Positions 6,369 to 61,598 of a stretch of DNA of 64,000 nucleotides are shown one piece after another. The notes beneath the pieces were generated by a model that searched no databases, was not told the DNA's origin, and saw only the letters and a program-made list of their open reading frames with translations. How positions within the stretch are numbered: the first letter of the stretch is position 1; each line of letters begins with the position of its first letter. Position numbers and translations under genes: made by a program. Source of the DNA: Bacteroidota bacterium (GTDB lineage Bacteria; Bacteroidota; Bacteroidia; Bacteroidales; B39-G9); assembly GCA_015222055.1 (NCBI GenBank), contig JADFUR010000113.1, forward strand, positions 41 through 64,040. Direction: 5' to 3'.

Positions 6369-7566
6369 CTAAAAGACTTACTACTTCAATAAAATTATCG
6401 ATAATAAAATCAACATTTTCATCTGTTAAACAAGTATGCAAAGGAATAGTAATTTCATTATGAAACATATCATAAGCATTTGGAAAATTCTTAATATCCA
6501 TACCTAAATCTTTATAGGCAGTCATCATTGGAAGAGGTTTATAATGTACATTACAAGCTACCTCTCTTTTAGCCATTTCTATAATCGCTTGATTTCTAAA
6601 TTCTATTGAACGTCCCAACAAACGTAAAATATATAAATGACCACTAGATTGGCTTATTTTTGTCCTATGAGGAAGTACTTGAACATTTAAAGGCTCATAA
6701 GCTTTATCATAACGAGCTATAATTTCTTGGCGACGTTTTAACATTTCAGGATAACGTTTAAACTGAACTAATCCTATTGCAGCCATAATATCTGTCATAT
6801 TATTTTTGTATGCTGGATAAATAATATCATATTCCCATGAACCCAACTTAGTTTTAGCCAAAGCATCCTTGTTTTGTCCATGAAGCGATAATAGTTGAAA
6901 TTTATTATAAAGCCATTCATCATCAATCTTGGCATTTGGTTTCCATGTTATAGCTCCTCCTTCTCCAGTTGTGAAATTTTTAACAGCATGGAAAGAAAAA
7001 CTTGTAAAATCAGCAACTTCCCCACACATTTTTTCTTTTCTTATAGCACCAAGTGCATGAGCCCCATCTGAACTAATTATAACTCTATTAAATAATTTTT
7101 GAATATCATTGGAAGCATGAAATAATTTTTTCTTTTTTTCAACAATTTCATAAATACGATCATAATCACACATAACACCCGCTAAATCCACAGGGATAAT
7201 AACTTTAGTATGTTCGTTAATAAGAGATTCTACCTGATTGTAATCCATTTCCAAAGTATTAGGAGCACAATCAACCATTACAACTTTAGCTCCCACATGA
7301 CAAATTACACTTGCGGAAGATGTATATGTATAGGCTGATACAATAACTTCATCACCAGGTCCAACACCTAAAATACGTAAAATCATTTCCATTGCCGATG
7401 TCGCAGAATTCGTACATACTACTTTTTTAGTATTCACAAAGCCTGCTAATAAATTTTCTAATTTTTTAGTACGTGGACCAGTTGTTATCCAACCAGATCT
7501 TAACGCTTCAGAAACTTCTTTTATTTCTTGCTCACCTACATCAGGTGGAGAAAAAGATATTTTCAT
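6352..7566 (-). CDS. DegT/DnrJ/EryC1/StrS-family sugar aminotransferase (WcfR/PglE-like)
   Basis: 404 aa. 'NSATSAMEMILRILGVGPGDEVI' and the PLP-lysine context 'FSFHAVKNFTTGEGG'. ATGA start/stop overlap with the upstream GNAT gene. Confidence 0.85.
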   Translation of the reverse strand: MKISFSPPDVGEQEIKEVSEALRSGWITTGPRTKKLENLLAGFVNTKKVVCTNSATSAMEMILRILGVGPGDEVIVSAYTYTSSASVICHVGAKVVMVDCAPNTLEMDYNQVESLINEHTKVIIPVDLAGVMCDYDRIYEIVEKKKKLFHASNDIQKLFNRVIISSDGAHALGAIRKEKMCGEVADFTSFSFHAVKNFTTGEGGAITWKPNAKIDDEWLYNKFQLLSLHGQNKDALAKTKLGSWEYDIIYPAYKNNMTDIMAAIGLVQFKRYPEMLKRRQEIIARYDKAYEPLNVQVLPHRTKISQSSGHLYILRLLGRSIEFRNQAIIEMAKREVACNVHYKPLPMMTAYKDLGMDIKNFPNAYDMFHNEITIPLHTCLTDENVDFIIDNFIEVVSLLDEKNI

Positions 7567-26932: not shown

Positions 26933-26966
26933 CTAAGCGGCTATAAATTGATAAATTAAATTTTCG
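26933..26966. repeat. 34-nt dispersed repeat, copy 1 (CTAAGCGGCTATAAATTGATAAATTAAATTTTCG)
   Basis: Matches 57611-57644 (GCTAAGCGGTTATAAGTTGATAAATTAATTTTCG) apart from 2 substitutions and 1 indel. Both copies are intergenic. Confidence 0.75.
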
Positions 26967-57498: not shown

Positions 57499-57610
57499 TG
57501 CATTGATGGTTTGAATATATAACTATGAGTCCACTCAAAGAAACCGCTAAGCGGTTAAATTAAAAAAGGGCTGAAAGCTATGAAACTGTACGTCAACTTA
57601 TTATAAATCC

Positions 57611-57644
57611 GCTAAGCGGTTATAAGTTGATAAATTAATTTTCG
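57611..57644. repeat. 34-nt dispersed repeat, copy 2
   Basis: See 26933-26966. Contains the CCGC-TAA-GCGG hairpin, which also occurs at 57542-57556. Confidence 0.75.
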
Positions 57645-57745
57645 GAGAAGTCTCTTGGTTCAATCTATAAGTATTTTTAAAAAAGCAATTAGTAATAAAA
57701 AGCAAATTTAGATACTACTTATTACTATCTAAAATATTAATTGAG

Positions 57746-57776: not shown

Positions 57777-59204
57777 ATGACAAAAAAACTCACCAAAATA
57801 GTAGCTACAATTTCAGATAAAAATTGTGATGTTGACTTCCTTAAAAAGCTATACAACGCAGGCATGAATGTTGTAAGATTAAACACTGCCCACCAAAACT
57901 ACGACGATACTCTAAAAGTAATAAACAATGTAAGAAAAGTATCTGATAAAATTGCCTTGCTTGTCGACACTAAAGGTCCTGAAATAAGAACCACAAATGC
58001 AGATGTTGATATTCCCGTTAAAAACGGCGATAGAATATTTATTAAAGGCGATCCTGATACAAATACCAATAAAGAATTAATTTGCGTTTCATACAGTAAT
58101 TTTGTTAATGATGTTCCTGTTGGATGTAAAATACTAATTGACGATGGAGAGGTTGAATTATCTGTTATTGAAAAAGATGATAGCCAACTGCTTTGCGAGG
58201 TTCAAAACGATGGAGTTATTCAAGGCAGAAAAAGCGTAAACATACCATCAGTCCACATAAAACTGCCTTCTTTAAGCGAAAAAGACAAAGGTTATATCAA
58301 CTTTGCAATTGAAAACAATATTGATTTCATAGCACACTCTTTTGTACGTAGAAAAGAAGATATATTTGCAATAAAAGATATCTTAAAAGCAAAAAATTCC
58401 AACATCAAGATAATTTCAAAAATTGAAAACCAAGAAGGTGTTGATAATATTGATGAGATAATTGACCACTCAGCAGGAATAATGATTGCCAGAGGTGACC
58501 TTGCCATTGAAATTCCACGTGAGAGAATTCCAATAGTTCAAAAAATAATTATTAATAAATGTATTGCTAAGCGTAAACAGGTTATTACGGCTACTCAAAT
58601 GCTTCATACAATGATTAAGAATCCACGCCCTACACGTGCCGAAGTTAGTGATGTTGCCAATGCAATTTATGATGGGACAGATGCAATAATGCTTAGCGGA
58701 GAAACGGCTTATGGGAAATACCCCTTAGAGTCTGTTCAAACCATGTCGAAAATTGCTTATGAAATTGAAAAAAGCAATGCTCCTTTTAAAGAAATTCAAA
58801 CAAAAATTCTTAATACCGAAGTATCTGCTTATCTAGCAAAATCTGCTGTTAAAGCTTCAATTAGACTTTCGTCTGAAGCTATTGTTGCCGACACTTTTTC
58901 TGGTCTCACTATTGAAAACATTACAGGATTTAGGGGGAACAAACCTATTTATGCCTTATGTTACAGCAAAAAAACTGTTCGCAAGCTTGCTCTATCTTAT
59001 GGCGTTTATGCTTATTATATGGAGCCTCGAAATACAGCCGATGACTTCTTGCAACACGCTTTGCCAAAATTAATTGAAAACAAATGTTTAACTAAAGACA
59101 GCCTAATTGTTGTAGTTGCAGGTAACTTTGGTCGTAGTCAAGGAGCTACTTTTATCGAAATAAGCACGGTTGAACATTTACTTACTCGAAACACAAATAT
59201 TTAA
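57777..59204 (+). CDS. pyk: pyruvate kinase
   Basis: 475 aa. 'TKIVATISDKN', 'GMNVVRLNTAHQ', 'LVDTKGPEIRT', 'MIARGDLAIEIP', 'ATQMLHTM'. Confidence 0.95.
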   Translation: MTKKLTKIVATISDKNCDVDFLKKLYNAGMNVVRLNTAHQNYDDTLKVINNVRKVSDKIALLVDTKGPEIRTTNADVDIPVKNGDRIFIKGDPDTNTNKELICVSYSNFVNDVPVGCKILIDDGEVELSVIEKDDSQLLCEVQNDGVIQGRKSVNIPSVHIKLPSLSEKDKGYINFAIENNIDFIAHSFVRRKEDIFAIKDILKAKNSNIKIISKIENQEGVDNIDEIIDHSAGIMIARGDLAIEIPRERIPIVQKIIINKCIAKRKQVITATQMLHTMIKNPRPTRAEVSDVANAIYDGTDAIMLSGETAYGKYPLESVQTMSKIAYEIEKSNAPFKEIQTKILNTEVSAYLAKSAVKASIRLSSEAIVADTFSGLTIENITGFRGNKPIYALCYSKKTVRKLALSYGVYAYYMEPRNTADDFLQHALPKLIENKCLTKDSLIVVVAGNFGRSQGATFIEISTVEHLLTRNTNI

Positions 59205-59450
59205 AAAATTTCAAATCTAATACTATCTAAATATTGAAATAGTATTAAAATTTATCGTGAAACAATAATTATCTTATTATAATTCACCATATTTTTTCTA
59301 TTAACCCCTCTCACTGTCAGGTTTCTACTCACAAATATATTTATATTATTTTGTGTTCGTGAGATTCGCTTCGCTACGGTTCCCCTGAAACAGGGGAGAT
59401 GGCTTTGAATAAAATTTATTTTAGAATATTAAAATTTTCAGTTCTGTTTT

Positions 59451-59600
59451 TTAATGCTTCTTTCCCTTTTTAAGGGAAAGTGGCGACAGCCGATAGGGTT
59501 ATATTAATAAATTTTGTTAAGCTTTTTTAATTTTACTTTTGGCTTGAACCAAAAGTAACAAAAGTTCAAGACTGCAAAGCAATTTCTTGTTTTCTACACT
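59451..59600 (+). repeat. copy A of a 150-nt bipartite structured element (candidate ncRNA)
   Basis: Near-identical to 59817-59966 in two blocks. Contains an 11-bp stem (59455-59483) and a perfect 10-bp stem (59532-59557). The G-T wobble favours the + strand. Confidence 0.6.
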
Positions 59601-59707
59601 CCACAACGCTAAAATAAAAGAACTCACTCCCTGCGGTCGTTCAAACAGCTTTTATTTTTTAACGCTTAGTTGCGTTTGAAAACTACAAAATTTCTTTGAG
59701 GTCGGAA

Positions 59708-59736
59708 TCGGAACTTGCAAGTTTCGTGTTTTTTTT
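59708..59736 (+). terminator. intrinsic terminator inside the non-coding island
   Basis: CGGAACT-TGCA-AGTTTCG (7 bp including one G-U) followed by TGTTTTTTTT. There is no upstream ORF, so it would end a non-coding + strand transcript. Confidence 0.55.
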
Positions 59737-59816
59737 AATGCAATTTTCAAAATATTAATAATTTGGAAAATTTAAAAGATTTATTACAAAATATTTAAGT
59801 TTCCTGTTCCGTTTAT

Positions 59817-59966
59817 TTAATGCTTCTTTCCCTTTTTTAGGGAAAGTGGCGACAGCCGATAGGGTTTATATTAAAAATTTCTGAAAACCTCTTTTCATTT
59901 ACTTTTGGTTTGAACCAAAAGTAACAAAAGCTCAAGACTGCAAAGTAATTTCTTGTTTTCTACACT
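59817..59966 (+). repeat. copy B of the 150-nt bipartite structured element (candidate ncRNA)
   Basis: Block 1 is 48/49 and block 2 is 67/70 identical to copy A. The 31-nt linker is only about half identical. Confidence 0.6.
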
Positions 59967-60511
59967 CTAATTTAGACACAAAAACAAACCACGTAGTGGT
60001 AATATGTTTATAGAACAGAAGCTATAAACATATTTTAAAGTGCCGTAGGTACGTCCTATTTTAAAATTTATTGTATAATAATTATTATTTTATTATAAGC
60101 CACCCTAATTTTAAATTGACACAATAGTCCGAAGGACTAAGACATCTTAACTTGGGACATCGTCCCAAGAAATACAGTAAAAAGTATTTCATCAGTCTGT
60201 AAGACTGAGACAAAGTTTAATAGAAAATAAAATATGATGAGAATTATTTTGGAATAATTTCTATCACCCATTTAGAGTTATTTAAAAACAATTATTTTTA
60301 TACTTGGGGCGTTGCCCCAAGTTAGATTATTATAGCCTTACAGGCTATTAATGTTTAGATTGAAAATAACTGAAGTTGAAAATTTAGATGCTCTTACATT
60401 ACTAAATTATTAGCGAATCCATTCGTTAAACGACTATCCTTATAGAAATATTAAAACTTTATAAATGCTAAGCATTCACACATTTATTAAAATCACAAAT
60501 TTATAGCTTGT

Positions 60512-60562
60512 GAAATTCCCTTATATTGTTTAAGTTGCAGATTAAAACAATGTAAGGGAATT
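60512..60562 (+). other. long 19-bp stem-loop (one U-G wobble, 13-nt loop)
   Basis: AAATTCCCTTATATTGTTT / AAACAATGTAAGGGAATTT. The single non-Watson-Crick position (60523/60551) is T-G on the + strand and would be A-C on the - strand. Confidence 0.6.
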
Positions 60563-61073
60563 TATTTTAACAATTAAACCTCTCAGCTATTGATTCGTTT
60601 CACCACATCTTTTTCTGATTTATAATATGATGCTTTTTATAATTTTTTTTGTTTGGATTTCGGATTGTAAATTAGAATTAAAAATAGAGGGGAAAAGAGC
60701 AGAGAACATCAGACTAGCACCATGCTTTAGCTTGGTGACTGATTAGCAAGTAGATTTCACAGTCCGCTTTAGCGGACTTCTAATAATATAAAAAATGCAA
60801 CACACACATTCACGTATATGGGTTTATATTATTTAGGCAACAATCTGAAAAAATTATAATTTCCTGATAATAAATTCCATTCTTTATACATACTCTTATC
60901 GCTATAAATCAAACAACATCTCCGTGATTTAATAAACAAATCAACAATTCTACATATAAACATATTTATAAATATTAAATTATTATTCTAAATAAAAAAT
61001 AAAATTATTATATTTATATTCTAAATCTTTTTTTAATTTTAGTAACACCTTATTTTCACATATTTAAATAATT

Positions 61074-61598
61074 ATGAGAATAAAAAGAACTAATACTTCA
61101 AAAAATAAAACTAAAAATCACCTTAAGGTTGATTTAAAATTAATTGACCCCATAATTTCAAAATATAAAAACAAAAAAGGTAATTTAATTCCAATATTGC
61201 AAGGCGTGCAAACTACTTATGGATTTATTCCACATGAAGCATTTATAAAGCTCTCAGATGAAATCGGTTTAAAATTAAATGACTTGTATGGGGTAGCTAC
61301 CTTTTATGCTCAATTTCGTCTTCATCCAGGTGGGAAACACATAATTAAGGTTTGTCATGGAACTGCTTGCCACGTTCAAAACTCTGATGGTATTACCGAT
61401 GCTTTAAAAGAAGAGCTTAAAATTAACGATGGCGAGACTACCAAAGATAATTTATTTACCCTAGAATCTGTTGCTTGCCTTGGTTGCTGCTCCCTCGCTC
61501 CTGTTATGATGATTGATGGAGAAACTTATGGCAAACTCGATAATGCAAAAGCTGTTAAAATAATTAGAGAAATAAAAAAAACAGAGTTTAGAGTTTAA
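61074..61598 (+). CDS. nuoE: NuoE/HydC-like thioredoxin-fold [2Fe-2S] subunit
   Basis: 174 aa. 'NLIPILQGVQ', 'VATFYAQF' and the Cys pattern 'VCHGTACH...ACLGCCSLAP'. Confidence 0.85.
   Translation: MRIKRTNTSKNKTKNHLKVDLKLIDPIISKYKNKKGNLIPILQGVQTTYGFIPHEAFIKLSDEIGLKLNDLYGVATFYAQFRLHPGGKHIIKVCHGTACHVQNSDGITDALKEELKINDGETTKDNLFTLESVACLGCCSLAPVMMIDGETYGKLDNAKAVKIIREIKKTEFRV

Follow-up and report, generated by a model that had tools for sequence, protein, structure and literature searches.

A hairpin core shared by intergenic units of Bacteroidota and Saccharimonadia, a candidate family of dispersed repeats

Two copies of a non-coding repeat, termed A and B, lie in the same orientation in an intergenic gap of a Bacteroidota bacterium (assembly GCA_015222055.1, contig JADFUR010000113.1), within a stretch of 64,000 nucleotides that was analysed as a whole (the window). 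Both copies contain a 42-nt core, a hairpin followed by a short tail, which recurs nearly unchanged in very different genomes. This core defines a hitherto undescribed family of hairpin repeats or non-coding RNAs (ncRNAs) that is absent from Rfam. Because the core has a sharp 5′ boundary, forms inverted pairs, is scattered over non-syntenic positions, coincides with a recombinant joint, shows an insertion signature at copy B and keeps a strictly Watson-Crick stem, we rank first, as a tentative assignment, a dispersed non-coding hairpin repeat family of the kind of repetitive extragenic palindromes (REP) and their doublets (REPIN) or of MITEs (miniature inverted-repeat transposable elements). 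The initial annotation had proposed a bipartite candidate family of small RNAs (sRNAs) or cis-RNAs; the evidence more probably points to mobile repeat DNA. An RNA role alongside the repeat DNA is compatible with this assignment, as the two readings are not exclusive.

Two direct copies and a core shared across genomes

The two direct, same-strand copies with an offset of 366 bp that had been described at first were confirmed (repeat D1, 59447-59601 and 59813-59967). Their similarity reaches ~47 nt farther upstream, to 59404 and 59768, at 73% identity, and the full repeated segments span 59404-59601 and 59768-59967 on the same strand. The two blocks are 95-98% identical, whereas the 5′ part and the linker between the blocks are ~74% identical when small indels are allowed. 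At the borders first drawn, block 1 matches at 48/49 positions, exactly as counted; block 2 is indeed nearly identical, with 66/70 matches on recount instead of the claimed 67/70. The linker had been called half identical, which applies to the ungapped comparison (16/31); this figure is low because of compensating 1-nt indels inside the linker, and a gapped alignment gives 25/34, or 74%. The uneven, block-wise divergence of the copies is significant: of the alignment columns, 4/114 differ within the blocks and 24/89 across the linker and the 5′ part (Fisher p = 1.8e-6). Each block sequence occurs exactly twice in the 64-kb window, compared to 0 occurrences in 100 shuffles, and an unfiltered covariance-model scan of the 64 kb found no third core.

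Copy A comprises the 5′ part, block 1, the linker, the core and 27 more nt, and its left border at 59404 is the point where the window departs from L048, a related metagenomic locus. Block 1 of copy A (59456-59500), which is 98% identical to that of copy B, consists of a hairpin GCTTCTTTCCC/GGGAAAGTGGC (59456-59484) followed by GACAGCCGATAGGGTT, and the stem contains the 11 pairs, including one U-U and one U-G, that had been proposed. In the core (59533-59574), the arms TTACTTTTGG (59533-42) and CCAAAAGTAA (59549-58) enclose the loop CTTGAA and precede the tail C-AAAAG-TTCAAG-ACTG (59560-74). The 10 perfect pairs of this stem, as well as the complementarity of the loop to TTCAAG 16 nt downstream, agree with the first description. 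Copy B is a 200-nt segment (59768-59967), in which block 1 occupies 59822-59866 and the core 59899-59940, again followed by 27 more nt. The cores of copies A and B score 71.8 bits (E = 3e-16) and 67.4 bits, respectively, in the covariance model R1.

The core corresponds to the first 42 nt of block 2, namely 10-bp arms around CTTGAA, followed by AAC(C)AAAAG-TTCAAG-(G/A)CTG. A metagenome scan with the hairpin as a pattern returned 29 loci with a GC content of 29-57%, among which the consensus (T)(T/C)ACTTTTGG-CTTGAA-CCAAAAGT-AAC(C)AAAAG-(T)TCAAG-(G/A)C(T)G is nearly invariant. The boundary of the core is sharp at the hairpin: upstream DNA is unrelated between loci and often T-rich, and downstream DNA differs between groups. 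Only the lineage of the window has block 1 and the linker, which occur in the window itself and, in diverged form, in the loci L022 and L048. Thus the 150-nt bipartite element does not stand as the conserved unit, for conservation begins at the core and runs downstream. The strong constraint ascribed to the block-2 hairpin is upheld by the near-invariance of the core across very different genomes and by diverged copies that keep the stem through two-sided changes. The block-wise identity is a true signal of constraint, but the functional unit had been drawn in the wrong place.

Carriers of the core in Bacteroidales include the window, which its pyruvate kinase homologues assign to Bacteroidota near Bacteroidales and Marinilabiliales, Parabacteroides distasonis and L043, a contig with a Bacteroidales-type signal recognition particle (SRP) RNA; L025 belongs to Pedobacter. 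P. distasonis possesses 3-4 core copies, and a sensitive search of plasmid records matched block 2 at three places of its fragmented genome. The contig Ga0164242_10000171, which contains L035 and L038, encodes a sortase in addition to PEGA-domain and ClpC proteins whose named relatives are found in Candidatus Saccharimonadia. As contigs of both Bacteroidota and Saccharimonadia carry the core, it occurs in at least two phyla. The family is multi-copy, with at least nine core-bearing contigs in one metagenome and two copies in the window. Four loci of one metagenome (L027, L028, L033 and L041) have a perfect 16-nt palindrome, CCCGATAGCTATCGGG, just after the tail (~+38 nt from the core start); their sister copies have GGCTGCAC in its place, which resembles a mini-palindrome nested in the element.

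Searches of large collections returned few leads. The central sequence of block 1 gave two matches among 185,579 species genomes, both due to chance, one of them inside a 748-aa open reading frame (ORF) of a 59%-GC genome. Among viral contigs, a 16-mer of block 1 had 12 chance matches, and block 2 and both core subtypes had none; the phage collection yielded no match, and the plasmid collection gave the lead to P. distasonis. Rfam 15 produced 0 matches in the window at the gathering threshold and nothing credible at E ≤ 10 in 59150-61150, 0 matches in the P. distasonis loci at E ≤ 0.1, and only SRP RNA and tRNAs, located elsewhere, in 13 metagenomic loci. ARAGORN detected no tRNA, and a literature search for the core sequence retrieved no relevant paper. 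Two coding frames that might represent a type I toxin or another small ORF were rejected, as neither is conserved between the copies: the ATG frame of block 1 is stopped in copy B; a hydrophobic minus-strand frame containing LLCSLELLLLLVQ has no conserved start, and a stop precedes it in copy B. No peptide like the 20-aa “smalltalk” ORF of P. distasonis (see below) was found.

Covariation of the core stem and a second hairpin

The model R1 was built from the core and then run over the loci, where it recovered diverged copies. Among the 36 distinct cores, changes in the stem are two-sided: GG/CC is replaced by GC/GC, GT/AC or CT/AG, and AC…GT by TC…GA, and in L033 both arms are lengthened together. 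The 358 core stem cells comprise 350 Watson-Crick pairs, 0 G·T pairs and 8 A·C pairs, the last at the outermost position only. In total, 95% of the stem cells are paired, compared to 23-62% when the partner strand is slid. Two-sided change of this strictly Watson-Crick type is the prediction of a DNA hairpin or palindrome. For the pseudoknot that had been proposed between loop and tail, the variable pair was found in three Watson-Crick versions (A-T in 11 cases, T-A in 4 and C-G in 1), beside which stand five single-sided breaks, including one in copy B; support for this pairing is therefore weak.

A local segmental duplication followed by neutral decay, in which the block pattern arose by chance or gene conversion and no part has a function, would fit the presence of only two copies in the window, and the mosaic relations of A, B and L048 described below fit recombination among copies. 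For the core, such a history is already contradicted by the wider family, as dozens of unrelated loci in two phyla carry it with little change and its stem covaries; moreover, the heterogeneity of divergence between the copies is significant. We consider it very improbable.

The flanks downstream of the two copies had been regarded as unrelated. Most of this holds, with 34/100 identical positions ungapped and 47% identity gapped, but the flank of copy A contains a conserved second hairpin (hp2, 59611-59658), which consists of the stem AAAATAAAAG/CTTTTATTTT and the loop AACTCACTCCCTGCGGTCGTTCAAACAG and is lacking in copy B. The hairpin occurs in three lineages, namely the window together with L048, P. 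distasonis, and L035 of Saccharimonadia, in all of which a loop with the ends AACTC…TCA(A/G)ACA is found at 86-89 nt from the core start. Its stems are unrelated: AAAATAAAAG/CTTTTATTTT in the window, GCATCCC/GGGATGC in P. distasonis and AGCCGACG/TGTCGGCT in L035. The chance of an hp2-like stem is ~1e-2 per lineage.

Folding of longer segments added little. Since the stems are palindromes, the two strands have the same fold energies, and folding energy gives no strand assignment. MAFFT misaligns hp2 across lineages, and therefore a consensus fold of full units is uninformative. A long-range closing helix and a lower hp2 stem, which appeared in minimum free energy folds and partly in RNAalifold, were dropped, as they were no better than in shuffled sequences.

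The core, tail and hp2 might together form a hitherto undescribed cross-phylum module of structured ncRNA or single-stranded DNA that is functional in its own right, composed of a 5′ hairpin whose loop pairs with the tail and a second hairpin with an invariant 18-19-nt loop. Such a module would have been maintained for long in Bacteroidota and Saccharimonadia, and could act, for example, as a ribozyme, as an RNA that is self-mobilising or guide-like, or as an RNA that a widespread protein uses for recognition. We judge this quite unlikely.

Arrangement of the units and the origin of copy B

Convergent inverted core pairs were observed in 10 loci, with the second core 70-650 nt away and the hairpins outermost. 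A tandem pair is present in L024, as in the window, and L043 carries a tight doublet with a 16-nt spacer. Most spacers of paired units elsewhere are 200-650 nt, and the pair of the window is direct. The Saccharimonadia (Patescibacteria) contig Ga0164242_10000171 has two convergent core pairs ~3 kb apart, which adjoin the sortase and PEGA-domain genes. Every copy lies between genes; in 19/23 loci the gene downstream of it has the opposite strand, and the upstream genes are divided 12:12 between the strands. The neighbours are unrelated housekeeping genes, as judged by eye from translated ORFs. Several cores start 6-30 nt after a stop codon, and one core overlaps a stop codon. In L025 (core at 7276 in oriented coordinates), a SIR2-family deacylase ORF of Pedobacter (6605-7288) ends in a TGA within the core loop, and thus the element supplies the stop codon.

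In L055, two otherwise unrelated core loci are joined exactly across the core and tail, with 98.9% and 94.3% identity to the respective sides; the Fic/RNR side meets the Tex side over a 61-nt core plus tail at 2539-2599. The hybrid could reflect a real rearrangement or else a chimera that arose at the repeat during assembly. L055 is one of ten strain-level contigs with the Fic gene of the L030 locus, among which DNA 5′ of the core is swapped between strains up to ~9 nt from the hairpin.

Locus L048 is colinear with 59290-60062 of the window but has one copy only, and the window has three extra segments, the largest at 59707-59960. The upstream hairpin module that both loci share in the colinear alignment (59303-59403, plus strand, CCCCTCTCACTGTCAGGTTTCTAC ... 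GGGGAGATGGC) carries an extra ~50 nt in the window (about 59337-59387). Copy B is flanked by the direct repeat TAATTTGGA on its left (59759-59767) and TAATTTAGA on its right (59968-59976), which are identical at 8/9 positions; in comparison, random 9-mers of the region match at ≥8/9 positions with P ~8e-4 per pair of positions. In L048, a single TAATTTGGA is present at the corresponding place and copy B is absent. Relative to this empty site, copy B is a 200-nt insertion with a 9-bp direct repeat. The initial annotation had noted that bounds of target-site duplications and terminal inverted repeats would make the element a MITE; of these, copy B has the flanking direct repeat, relative to the empty site in L048, but is devoid of terminal inverted repeats. 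After copy B, an ancestral non-coding unit continues on the plus strand (59977-60062), which is 89% identical to L048 1907-2014, the segment that directly follows the equivalent of copy A's flank in L048. It contains the hairpins ACCACGTAGTGGT and GTGCCGTAGGTAC and, at 60001-60034, the 13-bp AT stem that had been reported after copy B.

Units >90% identical to copy A lie in other contexts, in L048 beside an IS1380-type transposase gene and in L022 beside rbfA. Block 1 is replaced by a different hairpin in L048, and both L048 and L022 keep only a diverged AGCCGAAATAG after it. The resulting relations are mosaic: block 1 of A resembles that of B, the linker of A partly resembles that of L048, and block 2 is the same in A and L048. 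The block-wise identity of A and B reflects constraint on parts of the element plus this mosaic history.

In the repeat-family reading that we favour, the core of 42-48 nt (a 10+6+10 palindrome and a short tail) would be the outer end of each unit; units are arranged singly, in convergent inverted pairs around 0.07-0.65 kb of non-coding DNA, or rarely in tandem as in the window. The core of copy A would belong to an older resident unit (core, hp2 and terminator-like hairpin) shared with L048, and copy B would be a family member that inserted later, 170 nt downstream, duplicating 9 bp of target. The core would be constrained family-wide and block 1 in this lineage only, with the 5′ part and linker left to drift. 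We infer mobility as the underlying process, in which the palindrome would be extruded as a hairpin in single-stranded or supercoiled DNA, and a trans-acting enzyme encoded elsewhere, for instance a transposase or recombinase, would recognise the hairpin and copy or recombine the units. RNA side effects are possible, as read-through transcripts would carry the same hairpins.

Several observations weigh against a mobile repeat. All 10 strain-level contigs that share the Fic gene of the L030 locus are occupied, without an empty site among them, and no target duplication is recognisable around the inverted-pair units. No RAYT (REP-associated tyrosine transposase) or recombinase gene adjoins any copy in ~25 loci with ORFs judged by eye, and the RAYT (HUH/Y1) motif is absent from 439 kb of locus sequence; the transposase genes near L048 (IS1380 type) and L051 (ISL3 type) are not bounded by cores. 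The ends of copy B, AAATTTAAAAG... and ...TTTTCTACACTC, are unrelated, leaving no terminal inverted repeats, and a tandem duplication followed by an internal deletion could mimic its insertion signature. In addition, copy numbers are low for a REP family, and plus-strand hairpins of terminator type lie 30-200 nt after the core in several lineages. The second hairpin adds to this list, since a purely selfish DNA repeat needs no conservation of hp2 and a functional RNA explains it better: a loop and position that are kept, with a stem rewritten to the base composition of the host, point to long residence under selection on a folded structure.

The copies of P. distasonis bear on the repeat-family reading and on another possible role for the core DNA. 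All of them are at one fixed position beside capsule loci, where each match starts 6-30 nt after an HU-family gene and precedes the 20-aa “smalltalk” ORF and an amidase gene. They follow a module of BT4734-type primase and DUF3987 helicase, which published work (PMC11724360, PMC5862659) places in mobile elements, a link that counts for the repeat-family reading too. Between the unit and the smalltalk ORF, five ATTCATA heptamers stand in tandem, close to the ORF (L018 3190-3245; L020 2973-3047 and 3515-3563). One copy has a duplicated half-core, and in L020 an inverted core follows the smalltalk ORF, so that the pair encloses it. The core may be a DNA site left or used by a larger mobile element, either a recombination site of the loxP/dif/pdif type or a signal, of the single-strand initiation or origin kind, for the primase-helicase module. 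As a recombination site, inverted pairs would bound invertible or exchangeable cassettes and direct pairs excisable ones. Such a site would account for the 10+6+10 geometry, in which a perfect palindrome surrounds an asymmetric centre (TTACTTTTGG-CTTGAA-CCAAAAGTAA), for the convergent pairs around small cassettes, including the L020 pair around the smalltalk ORF, for the recombination of L055 exactly at the core, and for the Watson-Crick pairing throughout the core stem; the primase, helicase and HU genes before the P. distasonis copies and the heptamers after them also suit it. However, the partners of a pair differ in the spacer (CTTGAA versus CTTGAT), whereas exchange by tyrosine recombinases requires identical spacers. 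Moreover, no recombinase or primase gene is near the other ~25 loci, as judged by eye from the ORFs, none of the contigs has one cassette in both orientations with the flanks identical, and hp2 is left unexplained. Altogether, a site of this kind appears unlikely.

Judged from sequence features, the main rival is a multi-copy sRNA gene family, with bodies that differ from one paralogue to the next and an intrinsic terminator at the end of the RNA; we hold it possible but less likely than the repeat family. The core would serve either as a conserved 5′ module, namely a protective 5′ hairpin possibly pseudoknotted with the tail, or as a built-in promoter, with a -7 box TAnnTTTG in the 5′ arm TTACTTTTGG and the start in the loop. 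The RNA of copy A would then extend from about 59535/59547 to 59736, a length of ~190-205 nt, and copy B would encode a paralogue that is truncated or has another kind of termination. The conserved hp2 loop, held at a fixed distance from the core above three unrelated stems in three lineages and two phyla, favours such a gene. The terminator reported after copy A is present as a hairpin CGGAACTTGCAAGTTTCG at 59709-59726, followed by T8 within TGTTTTTTTT (up to 59736); it is on the same strand as copy A, is the best such site of the region and is absent from L048, and it may be the 3′ end of a copy-A transcript. The region has five terminator-like sites, compared to 0.7 expected in shuffles, and short units of core plus terminator occur in L023/32/45 and L034; in P. 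distasonis and L048, such a terminator is weak or lacking. A perfect TAnnTTTG is found in the core arm in most loci, on both strands, and a canonical box upstream of the core in 1/28 loci. In L030 and L034, no more than ~10 nt separate the core from the terminator of the unit upstream, which leaves room for an internal promoter only. The rare non-Watson-Crick pairs are plus-strand G·U (in block 1, in the innermost pair of the L035 hp2 and in the loop/tail pair of copy B), and the fixed position of the P. distasonis copies likewise suits an sRNA gene. Multi-copy sRNA families are also known in Bacteroides, as exemplified by FopS (PMC11697453).

Other features are difficult to reconcile with an sRNA gene. 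A promoter in the arm would leave the hairpin untranscribed, and the stem covariation without an RNA explanation. The -33/-7 spacing of such promoters is 19-21 nt; in these loci, the -33 box is absent or at a 17-nt spacing, and the GTCACTTTTGG variants, among them that of P. distasonis, have lost the -7 box. The core stem has no G·T pair in any variant, the fold z-scores of full units are modest (-1.7 and -2.6), and the proposed long-range helices do not surpass shuffled sequence. Convergent pairs, a recombinant joint and a 9-bp flanking repeat are foreign to ordinary sRNA genes, and it would be unusual for an sRNA to keep a 42-mer nearly identical from one phylum to another.

If these assignments are correct, the core represents a repeat or ncRNA family absent from Rfam, whose 42-nt core is kept in Bacteroidales, Sphingobacteriia and one Patescibacteria genome and whose hp2 is rewritten to the base composition of each host while the loop is kept. 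The family marks breakpoints of genome rearrangement, one recombinant joint having been seen, and can confound the assembly and annotation of intergenic regions. P. distasonis, which is culturable and has its copies between the HU gene and the pair of tiny membrane-peptide and amidase genes beside capsule loci, offers a tractable model for distinguishing selfish DNA, regulatory RNA or both.

The host gap and comparison with known systems

The window has a GC content of 28.7% and is densely packed with genes; its sole long gene-free gap (59205-61073, 1,869 bp), flanked by a pyruvate kinase gene and NuoE/NuoF-like genes, contains copies A and B. Its nearest relatives L003-L005 (83-88% identity) have a gene of ~140 aa where the window is non-coding, and a synteny comparison showed that their intergenic DNA is unrelated to that of the window. 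This gene is cysteine-rich with CPxC motifs and intact in L003-L005, and L004 has in addition a DUF2279 gene that is wholly missing from the window. Of the ~140-aa gene, the window retains no more than the final 15 codons with the stop (IHSLNDYPYRNIKTL*, 60417-60464); the region has therefore been rebuilt, in keeping with the repeat-family reading. The whole A/B region is bracketed by an AT-rich direct repeat of 52 nt (59245-59296 and 60061-60112; 81% identity, 816-bp spacing), which may be fortuitous in DNA of this composition or may mark the edges of a larger inserted block.

Downstream, a chain of short hairpins with GC stems and 3-nt loops extends over 60115-60360 in AT-rich DNA, comprising TAGTCC-GAA-GGACTA, CTTGGGAC-ATC-GTCCCAAG, CAGTCT-GTA-AGACTG, CTTGGGGC-GTT-GCCCCAAG and ATAGCC-TTA-CAGGCTAT. 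The chain has DNA-fold z-scores of -5.3 and -6.2; similar tri-loop hairpins are found at 59988-60000 and 60040-60052, and they may belong to another small-palindrome family. A second repeat at 57521-57654 (also at 26933-26966) lies between the genes of a beta-lactamase-fold protein and pyruvate kinase. It holds two AACCGC-TAA-GCGGTT hairpins and is 81% identical, in inverted orientation, to L048 2015-2150, the DNA directly after the L048 unit.

Among known systems, the FopS and GibS sRNA families of Bacteroides (PMC11697453, PMC7366714) resemble the present units in being multi-copy and intergenic, with a 5′ part that is conserved, a remainder that varies and a terminator, and in their possible spread by mobile elements. 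They differ in that Rfam, which includes FopS, gives no match to the core family. Compared to FopS, which has a single-stranded 5′ seed and canonical upstream promoters, the 5′ part of the core family is a perfect hairpin without an upstream box, and the inverted pairing of cores has no counterpart in FopS. The 77-bp inverted-repeat element of the Porphyromonas gingivalis capsule locus is similarly non-coding and bounded by long inverted repeats; it is transcribed both ways and yields the regulatory RNA asSuGR (PMC3969353, PMC8757827). It sits beside an HU gene and capsule genes, as do the P. distasonis core copies. Its 77-bp arms have 8 mismatches, and the likeness is one of description only, with no sequence compared.

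The loxP/dif/pdif sites and pdif modules share with the core inverted arms around a 6-bp asymmetric spacer, inverted pairs that bound small modules, and a joint at the site. However, the spacers of core pairs are unequal, no recombinase is nearby, the sites are chromosomal and the cargo is non-coding. The REP/REPIN system is closer in form: these are short extragenic palindromes whose stems are kept by compensatory change, and occur as singlets and inverted doublets (L043 being REPIN-like) in intergenic DNA, often after stop codons or between convergent genes. Their enzyme, a RAYT, is encoded in trans, as that of the core family would be, and Bacteroidetes RAYT genes are reported to be bordered by atypical secondary structures, which are present at other places of the genome as well (PMC6006769). 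Nevertheless, in a REP the 5′ foot of the palindrome bears a conserved tetranucleotide, GTAG or CGTC (PMC3733652), whereas the core begins with (T)T/C-ACTTTTGG and has neither tag on either strand. The core family is also of low copy, with pairs up to 650 nt apart and a structured cargo, hp2. REPs are usually lineage-specific, in contrast to a core that is nearly identical across phyla, and no RAYT gene is linked to the core family.

The MITEs, such as the Correia elements of Neisseria and the ERIC/IRU elements of enterobacteria, are likewise non-coding units of 0.1-0.65 kb with long terminal inverted repeats. They are also intergenic, multi-copy and able to form large hairpins in transcripts, and the direct repeat flanking copy B agrees with this class, as do the small size, the lack of an ORF and the multiple copies of the core family. 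By contrast, copy B has no terminal inverted repeats, the other copies show no consistent target duplication, and no parent insertion sequence with these ends is known. Correia and ERIC elements nonetheless provide precedents for combined roles as repeat DNA and RNA.

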